Below, one piece after another: positions 25,215 to 25,577 of a DNA stretch of 59,783 bases. The DNA is from a virus. Taxonomy: Duplodnaviria > Caudoviricetes. Location: positions 1-59,783 of IMG/VR virus record IMGVR_UViG_3300027902_000011; one strand, written 5' to 3'. The position numbers and the translations under genes are program-made. Below the pieces are notes generated by a model that did no database searches, was not told where the DNA came from, and saw only the letters and a list, made by a program, of their open reading frames with translations. Each line of letters opens with the position of its first letter. The stretch's first letter is position 1.

Positions 25215-25577
25215 TTGAAAGTATTTCAGTCTCGCTGGAAACCAGAGCGCGCCCTCTTGGGCCGACCTACCAGTCAAGTACCGTGAACCGGGCGTGCCAT
25301 GACAGCACGCATGCGATCCACTTGAACATTAGGTAGAGGGTGGAGGGAGAACTTGAGTGGGTTCCTCGACCCTCTGCCTAATGTGGCAGAGGAAAGAACC
25401 CTCTGCCGGTTAGGCGATATATGTCCCTTGGGGGGACAAGAAGCTATCACGCGCTTCCGAGCACCAGCCTAGTGCTGGTTTCGATATGCGCTTGGTATTA
25501 TGTCTGACCGCTCGGGTCATCTTGCTTCCTACTTTAGTTGCTGGTCGGAACTTACCCGACAAGGAATCGTCCATTGC
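25215..25577 (-). ncRNA. Highly structured leader or ncRNA(s) of the tRNA operon, containing a 23S rRNA helix-71 copy
   Basis: Many hairpins, no credible ORF; ATTCCTTGTCGGGTAAGTTCCGACC at 25543-25567. Confidence 0.65.

Follow-up and report, generated by a model that had tools for sequence, protein, structure and literature searches.

Pieces of rRNA structure displayed in mRNA leaders are a classical means of autoregulation, as in the ribosomal-protein operators of L1, L10, L20, S8, and S15. Non-tRNA transcripts are also familiar from phage tRNA operons: the tRNA cluster of T4 co-transcribes small stable RNAs, species 1 and 2 (rnaC/rnaD), which to our knowledge are not rRNA-like, and we know of no sequence relation between them and the leader described below. 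The rRNA element considered here, loop 70 with helix 71, belongs to domain IV of 23S rRNA, in an intersubunit bridge region, and contains the m5U1939 and m5C1962 sites, the respective enzymes being RlmD and RlmI.

This region of 23S rRNA and its gene has been described as a target in two further settings. At the RNA level, loop 70 is a real toxin target, as the toxins MazF-mt3 and MazF-mt6 cut its UUCCU sequence, in the free 50S subunit only, according to the review PMC5408214. At the DNA level, a LAGLIDADG-encoding group I intron is known at L1951 of a bacterial 23S gene, with the insertion sites L1917 and L1931 nearby (as given in PMC1995217). Phage tRNA arrays, in turn, are described in PMC13096335 as serving counter-defence; the same source reports that the Septu defence cleaves tRNA-Tyr in its variable loop, and attributes DNA rearrangement in phage T6 to SegB, an endonuclease of the tRNA region.

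The locus analyzed here, a 29-nt block in the leader of the tRNA operon of a T4-like phage, resembles each of these systems in part. Compared with 23S loop 70/helix 71 itself, 28 of the 29 bases are the same and the helix-71 hairpin is intact, whereas the block is only 29 nt long, lies in a phage tRNA-operon leader, has a loop shorter by 2 nt if the preceding G closes it, and carries A for U1963. With the ribosomal-protein operators it shares a piece of rRNA structure shown in a 5' leader; however, those operators have limited sequence identity to rRNA, precede the gene of their binder, and are conserved, whereas the identity here is near-perfect, tRNAs, endonuclease ORFs, and RNase P RNA follow instead of a ribosomal-protein gene, and no conservation is seen. 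Since no such gene lies downstream and the block is not conserved, it fails the tests for an operator of this type. The T4 species 1 and 2 RNAs are comparable in being non-tRNA structured RNA within a T4-like tRNA transcription unit (the leader has z = -5.6 here). Relative to the group I intron homing sites L1917, L1931, and L1951, the block covers the L1951 site (PMC1995217), with ~13 nt on the 5' side and 11–15 nt on the 3' side under the standard numbering offset of +6, but the phage window has neither the intron nor a LAGLIDADG gene. Finally, host-derived filler insertions and SegB rearrangements have in common with it a short, sharp-edged foreign piece at a non-coding spot in an endonuclease-rich tRNA array; differences are that no significant junction duplication or microhomology is present at the block, that its host rDNA donor is putative, and that the SegB case, as described in PMC13096335, concerns amplified phage DNA rather than the capture of host DNA proposed here. 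Among these systems, the block is best grouped with filler insertions of host origin in phage regions prone to recombination.

Results

Identity of the Block

The analyzed window is a whole IMG/VR virus record, a linear contig of 59,783 bp, ~33% complete, with 53% G+C. Its minus strand reads ATTCCTTGTCGGGTAAGTTCCGACCaGCA at 25567..25539. This 29-nt block is oriented in the sense direction relative to 23S rRNA and is identical to it at 28 of 29 bases, the first 25 (25567–25543) forming an exact 25-mer. Blastn with a 61-nt query (25525–25585, minus strand) finds the annotated 23S rRNA gene in every one of the 5426 complete E. coli genomes; in most of these records the identity is 28/29, over query positions 19–47, which correspond to 25567–25539 of the window. 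The sole mismatch is the A at 25542, where E. coli has U1963. The 29-mer with this A occurs, among ~185,000 species genomes, in two short 23S contigs of one MAG, and is thus a rare variant.

Counted from the 5' end of the PGAP-annotated 23S gene, the block corresponds to E. coli positions 1932–1960. The offset to the standard numbering, which we take to be +6, places it at ~1938–1966, i.e., in loop 70 and helix 71; with this offset U falls at 1939 and C at 1962, consistent with the standard numbering. In the Rfam consensus structure, the same rRNA positions form the 9-nt loop 70 and the helix-71 hairpin, with the closing pair G1935–C1962. The exact 25-mer ends at C1962, the 3' partner of this closing pair in the Rfam structure, and the U1963-to-A substitution falls just beyond the module. 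The CG directly before the block could at best represent C1934–G1935, if two A's of the loop were deleted. The copied piece extends over ~29 bp, or possibly over 33 bp with a 2-nt gap. The helix-71 hairpin, GUCGGG-UAAGU-UCCGAC (25544..25560, minus strand), is present in the leader's predicted minimum-energy fold and in its centroid fold alike.

In a blastn-short comparison between a whole E. coli rrn operon and the window, the block stands out with E = 2.7e-7, the runner-up being a 14-mer with E = 0.99; none of 100 dinucleotide shuffles of the window contains a match at three or fewer mismatches. Judged from the sequence, the exact match over 25 nt means that the block must be a copy of 23S sequence and not a product of convergence.

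No LSU or SSU covariance model reaches its gathering score in the window, and none matches at E <= 10 in 25200–25750. The 23S rRNA model RF02541 has no match in a scan of the whole record, whereas 241 nt of a true 23S gene reach 235 bits with this model. As the rRNA models match nowhere in the record, the block is an isolated 29-nt piece; it is not a 23S rRNA gene, the gathering score of RF02541 not being reached. Its edges are sharp and its flanks are unrelated to rRNA. The initial annotation, which had read the minus strand as the loop 70/helix 71 segment of 23S rRNA with no other rRNA sequence around it, is confirmed on both points, by blastn against E. coli and by the LSU/SSU scans. A complementary copy of the block is absent from the window. 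A second 12-mer of the hairpin at 28420–28431 was set aside: the other arm is missing, and the match is therefore attributed to chance.

Promoters, Leader, and a Candidate Small ORF

Two predicted promoters precede the block on the minus strand. The proximal one, P2 (25583..25611), consists of TTGACA (25611–25606), a 17-nt spacer, and TATATA (25588–25583), with TG two bases ahead of the -10 hexamer and an A-tract upstream; the block begins ~9–11 nt past its putative start. The distal one, P1 (25678..25706), consists of TTGACA, a 17-nt spacer, and TACTAT, agrees with the consensus at 10 of 12 positions, and lies 95 nt upstream of P2. The pattern TTGACA-N16-18-TAYWNW is found seven times in the window (at 13716, 20754, 25583, 25678, 44643, 50423, and 52852) against 0.28 expected, on the coding (minus) strand in six of the seven cases, and in most cases with TG just before the -10 element; one of these sites (20782–20754) falls within the tRNA array. 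A scan with a stricter promoter consensus lists P1 and omits P2, because the last base of the P2 -10 element is A; P2 is nevertheless credible, since this promoter type is enriched in the window. The promoter with a predicted start ~10 nt before the block and the position at the head of an RNA operon, both claimed initially, are thus present. On the opposite strand, for a putative antisense RNA, no convincing upstream promoter is seen by eye, and the promoter scan lists none there.

The leader between P2 and the first tRNA (25215..25582, minus strand, 368 nt) is strongly structured, with a predicted folding energy of -145.8 kcal/mol and z = -5.6 relative to shuffles, and matches no Rfam family. 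In the predicted fold the UUCCU sequence is partly paired. Matches to the boxA consensus (up to three mismatches) number 13 in the window against 11.3 expected, none of them in the leader. A leader–trailer helix around the array is not found; the sole pairing of the leader with a distal segment is 14 nt long, at 93%, and excludes the block. The array lacks the rRNA-operon-style framing by boxA and a leader–trailer helix.

A candidate small ORF (25410..25574, minus strand) could encode 54 amino acids from the ATG at 25574, or 36 from the ATG at 25520 behind AGGAAG; both starts are in the same frame, and the longer reading (25574–25413) passes through the block. A search of 5.8 billion protein clusters, restricted to lengths of 29–95 aa, finds no homologue at the sensitivity of the tool, and a Pfam search with a 60-aa form gives no hit. 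As the homologue search is empty, the candidate is probably not a gene.

The Phage and Its RNA Operon

The phage is T4-like, as seen from its major head protein, scaffold, DNA polymerase, clamp and clamp loader, UvsX-like recombinase, and SbcCD-like nuclease subunits; among isolates, a Stenotrophomonas phage is the closest by capsid protein (68% identity). The minus-strand operon headed by the block combines five free-standing homing-endonuclease genes with 26 tRNAs and an RNase P RNA. The 26 tRNA genes identified by the tRNA finder span 17687..25214, with endonuclease ORFs interspersed. The finders disagree in places: ARAGORN calls a 90-nt tRNA-Ile(tat) at 21537–21626 (minus strand) that is not in the Rfam list, and Rfam gives a weak tRNA (35.2 bits) at 21067–21147 (minus strand) that is not called by ARAGORN. 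A strong terminator-like hairpin of nine pairs followed by a T run (16896..16917, minus strand) is located past the array and one lipase-like ORF.

The RNase P RNA (22970..23249, minus strand) is of bacterial class A and scores 170.9 bits; it looks reduced, as 280 nt are aligned over a model of 367 positions. An exact 14-nt inverted repeat (22969–22982/23241–23254) closes it. A literature search for phage-encoded RNase P RNA returned nothing on the topic.

The five endonuclease ORFs of the array, all on the minus strand, are that nearest to the block, with a NUMOD3 motif (24184..24792), and those with HNH (23190–23657), GIY-YIG/NUMOD3 (21937–22530), HNH (19958–20395), and HNH_3 (18370–18894) signatures. 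Outside the array, HNH_3, NUMOD3, or GIY-YIG signatures are present in ORFs at 903–1514 (plus), 8045–8659 (plus), 44665–45225 (plus), 53472–54017 (minus), and 56585–57145 (plus). With at least ten homing-endonuclease ORFs (HNH, GIY-YIG, or NUMOD3) in 60 kb, five of them within the 8-kb array, their density is unusually high. Several of these ORFs are on the strand opposite to the neighbouring genes.

Directly upstream of the operon, a stand-alone protein of 129 aa (25729..26118, minus strand) has as its only domain the tRNA-binding S4/tyrosyl-tRNA synthetase C-terminal one (Pfam S4, 2e-09; best match among solved structures, the TyrRS C-terminal domain, 7.5e-05). The tRNA operon includes tRNA-Tyr, and since Septu is reported to cut the variable loop of this tRNA (PMC13096335), one may speculate that the S4 protein acts as a shield of tRNA-Tyr.

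A minus-strand cluster at 37082–41933, in which ORFs resembling a C5 cytosine methylase and a thymidylate synthase accompany a TET-associated glycosyltransferase and a dCMP deaminase, suggests cytosine hypermodification of the phage DNA. Auxiliary genes, all on the minus strand, encode a NADAR domain protein (6962–7429), Hsp20 (13109–13615), a YkuD L,D-transpeptidase (14602–15132), a peptide deformylase (44044–44607), and a ClpX-like ATPase (54838–56094).

Occurrence in Other Phages

The exact 25-mer is found in two other stretches among 2.9 million viral contigs, and both are 23S sequence: one (L002) is a true 23S gene, and the other (L001) is a piece of 23S situated 140 nt from the end of its contig. 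The latter (L001:14419–14545) is situated in the last 160 nt of the AT-rich IMGVR_UViG_3300036715_002609 and comprises ~125 nt of 23S sequence (~1920–2040) with non-rRNA sequence on both sides; its left boundary is in the L1917–L1923 intron hot spot, and the contig end may represent intron-interrupted rDNA or a chimera.

Among GenBank phage sequences, 39 records have any match, and among the matches listed no complete phage genome has the full 29 nt. The listed carriers of the 29-nt match are short (2–25 kb) records, unannotated or annotated as 23S, or bacterial and rRNA reference records; the remaining listed matches are 17–35 nt long with E of 3–9.

The search with the capsid protein retained 80 loci at 61–74% identity, with no close relative among them. 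The block was sought, at three or fewer mismatches in 20, in the 25 records from these loci that have contigs of at least 19 kb, and is absent from all 25 (61–73% capsid identity, mostly fragments, 9–96% complete); as these relatives are distant and mostly fragmentary, its absence is weak evidence. The result is that named initially as speaking against the reading of the block, namely, absence from related phages, here T4-like records that are distant and mostly partial. BLAST of the leader against the five largest relatives gives nothing better than E = 0.14.

Proteins encoded next to the block provide few further relatives. A neighbouring 192-aa protein has one, in an otherwise unrelated complete 49-kb phage; the block is absent from this phage, and the 12-kb locus examined contains neither the block nor a tRNA gene. 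The S4-domain protein has no relative in the viral contigs. In metagenome contigs it has seven weak, generic S4-domain matches (39–81% identity over 21–59 residues), which were rejected as unusable for identifying relatives. The block is a singleton among the sequences compared, and a literature search at title and abstract level found no phage-encoded rRNA mimic and no helix 71 in phages.

Comparison of the E. coli 23S rRNA with 26 phage records (the 25 capsid relatives and the 49-kb phage) yields matches of 14–34 nt, all with E >= 0.004. Ten of these were inspected: six are within ORFs of at least 95 aa (L109, L110, L111, L114, L115, and L116); L113 is, by eye, coding on the opposite strand; L108 and L112 fall at junctions between genes; and the only frame overlapping L117 has 72 aa. 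The match at L108:1534–1549 (G011:13133–13148, minus strand), from a T4-like relative, is identical at 16 of 16 positions to 23S helix 69 (~1906–1921) in the sense orientation, and directly follows a stop codon at the gene junction. It may be due to chance, given E = 0.06 for that record.

The hairpin core, the 18-mer GTCGGGTAAGTTCCGACC, occurs in seven stretches of the viral contigs: the rRNA sequences L001 and L002, an integrase gene (L087), a 1,330-aa ORF (L086), and three stretches of one lineage (L085, L088, and L089). The chance expectation is one or two occurrences by a rough estimate of the size of the collection, and these look-alikes are not counted as support for a recurrent mimic. 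The lineage of L085, L089, and L088 (records L091, L092, and L093) consists of AT-rich phages, two of ~160 kb and one of 47 kb classed as a provirus. Its members share an intergenic element of ~170 nt (at ~1500 of the locus), which is better conserved than the upstream gene and in which a 20-mer equals helix 71 but for one base. It is located at the point where the downstream genes begin to differ (Rha-like plus integrase, integrase-like, or other), and may represent either a small RNA or a site of recombination.

Discussion

The most likely reading, to which we give about even odds, is that the block is a scrap of the host 23S gene, pasted in during break repair and transcribed as a passenger only. 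A double-strand break, or another event of illegitimate recombination, would have occurred in the endonuclease-rich tRNA region, and sequence of the host 23S rRNA gene, the presumed donor, would have served as templated filler in the repair and landed in the non-coding leader of the tRNA/RNase P RNA operon. Such a templated insertion is favoured by the sharp-edged copy together with the many endonuclease ORFs near the block; as expected of filler, the insert is short, sharply bounded, and matches its presumed donor (25/25 bases, unrelated flanks). Being positioned behind the operon promoters, the block is presumably transcribed, and a helix-71-like hairpin would form in the transcript; the non-coding leader being its site, the block is most likely tolerated there as a neutral passenger rather than a working part. 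That the scrap derives from rRNA may require no special explanation, since without the host genome only scraps of universally conserved genes would be recognizable. The captured endonuclease target or insertion scar that the initial annotation had offered as its alternative fits the context better than the decoy, with at least ten endonuclease ORFs and a block spanning L1951, but shows no significant insertion signature. A 7-nt direct repeat, GAAGCAA, does flank the block, but 439 of 5000 shuffles score equally, as do 2115 of 20000 random sites of the window (p ~0.09–0.11), and the test of flanking repeats thus detects no significant signature. Several features speak against a passenger, namely, the sense copy, its distance of ~10 nt from the putative start of a strong promoter, and an exact match ending at the closing base, all of which would be expected of a selected module.

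These same features are arguments for a working RNA, in which the 5' end of the abundant tRNA-operon transcript would display the loop-70/helix-71 module and titrate its reader or be recognized by it; we regard this as possible, if rather unlikely. That reader might be a defence nuclease that cuts rRNA, a factor for rRNA modification or assembly, or an RNA complementary to the region. Here, the sense orientation behind an enriched strong-promoter type is joined by the helix-71 hairpin of the predicted folds, by an exact match that stops at the closing C1962, with a preceding G that could close the module with a loop shorter by 2 nt, and by a sole change (U1963 to A) that is outside the module and rare in nature; the reported toxin cleavage of loop 70 (PMC5408214) and the counter-defence role described for phage tRNA arrays (PMC13096335) also fit. 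Opposed to it are the singleton status of the block, with conservation seen nowhere among the sequences compared, the absence from the window of an rRNA methyltransferase, a ribosomal protein, or a toxin-like gene (the methyltransferase at 11153–11764 is of the FkbM type, and no cognate toxin gene was found among the ORFs scanned), the absence of a complementary copy, and the partial pairing of UUCCU in the predicted fold; moreover, a substrate-like decoy would be a weak competitor for a catalytic enzyme against ribosomes numbering tens of thousands. The initial annotation correctly stated that the segment contains the UUCCU cut by MazF-mt6, in agreement with the review PMC5408214, whereas its suggestion of an abundant decoy for a toxin or a ribosome factor finds no support, given the singleton, its absence from all 25 relatives (weak evidence by itself), and the poor decoy that a 29-nt substrate would make. 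A bolder version, in which the RNA operon that a T4-like phage transcribes most heavily starts with an exact copy of the module as a stand-in for the ribosome, is doubtful; equally doubtful are the roles conceivable for such a stand-in, which as sponge or bait would draw off an rRNA-directed defence nuclease, an rRNA modification or assembly factor, or an anti-rRNA small RNA of a competing phage. At the DNA level, the block might instead be the target of an L1951-type group I intron endonuclease, either left behind when an rDNA intron or endonuclease cassette visited and was precisely lost, or brought in together with such an element. By position arithmetic, the exact 25-mer (~1938–1962) is roughly centred on 1951 and includes the insertion position with ~10 bp on each side, the L1951 intron with its LAGLIDADG gene is known from a bacterial 23S gene (PMC1995217), and the phage is rich in homing endonucleases. 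However, LAGLIDADG is found in none of 87 ORF translations (searched against Pfam; two of these were also among 22 compared with PHROGs), group I intron models have no match at E <= 10 in 25200–25750, the symmetry of the hairpin itself accounts equally well for the centring, and several unlikely steps would be needed, with an intact target site likely to be a liability for the phage; this origin is quite improbable.

Two further explanations were considered. Were it the coding sequence of a 54-aa protein, with the likeness to rRNA secondary, the open frame through the block and the in-frame ATG at 25520 behind AGGAAG would be accounted for; but the candidate is devoid of homologues among the protein clusters searched, its 60-aa form draws a blank in Pfam, and protein constraint cannot produce an exact rRNA match of 25 nt, so that the frame would at most be an overprint on captured sequence, and we consider such a protein very unlikely. 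That the match is due to chance or is an artefact of assembly is scarcely credible. The record is indeed a metagenome assembly, and 18-mers of the hairpin do arise by coincidence, as in the integrase gene (L087) and the 1,330-aa ORF (L086); yet the E-value within the window is ~3e-7, none of the 100 shuffles has a comparable match, and the block is internal, the 59.8-kb contig having phage sequence, promoters, and same-strand genes both before and after it; a chimeric join would hardly add 29 nt and then return to the same phage sequence.

A functional block would be the first case of an rRNA element mimicked in sense by a phage, and would direct attention to host factors or defences reading loop 70/helix 71 in the free 50S subunit, and thereby to rRNA-directed immunity and its evasion; the stand-in reading, if true, would carry the counter-defence logic described for phage tRNA arrays over from tRNA to rRNA. 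If the block is a captured passenger, as we favour, it would warn against reading function into every near-perfect rRNA match in a phage, provide a clean, datable case of a phage tRNA array that has taken up host rDNA, and support the view of endonuclease-rich tRNA regions as entry points for foreign sequence in phage genomes.
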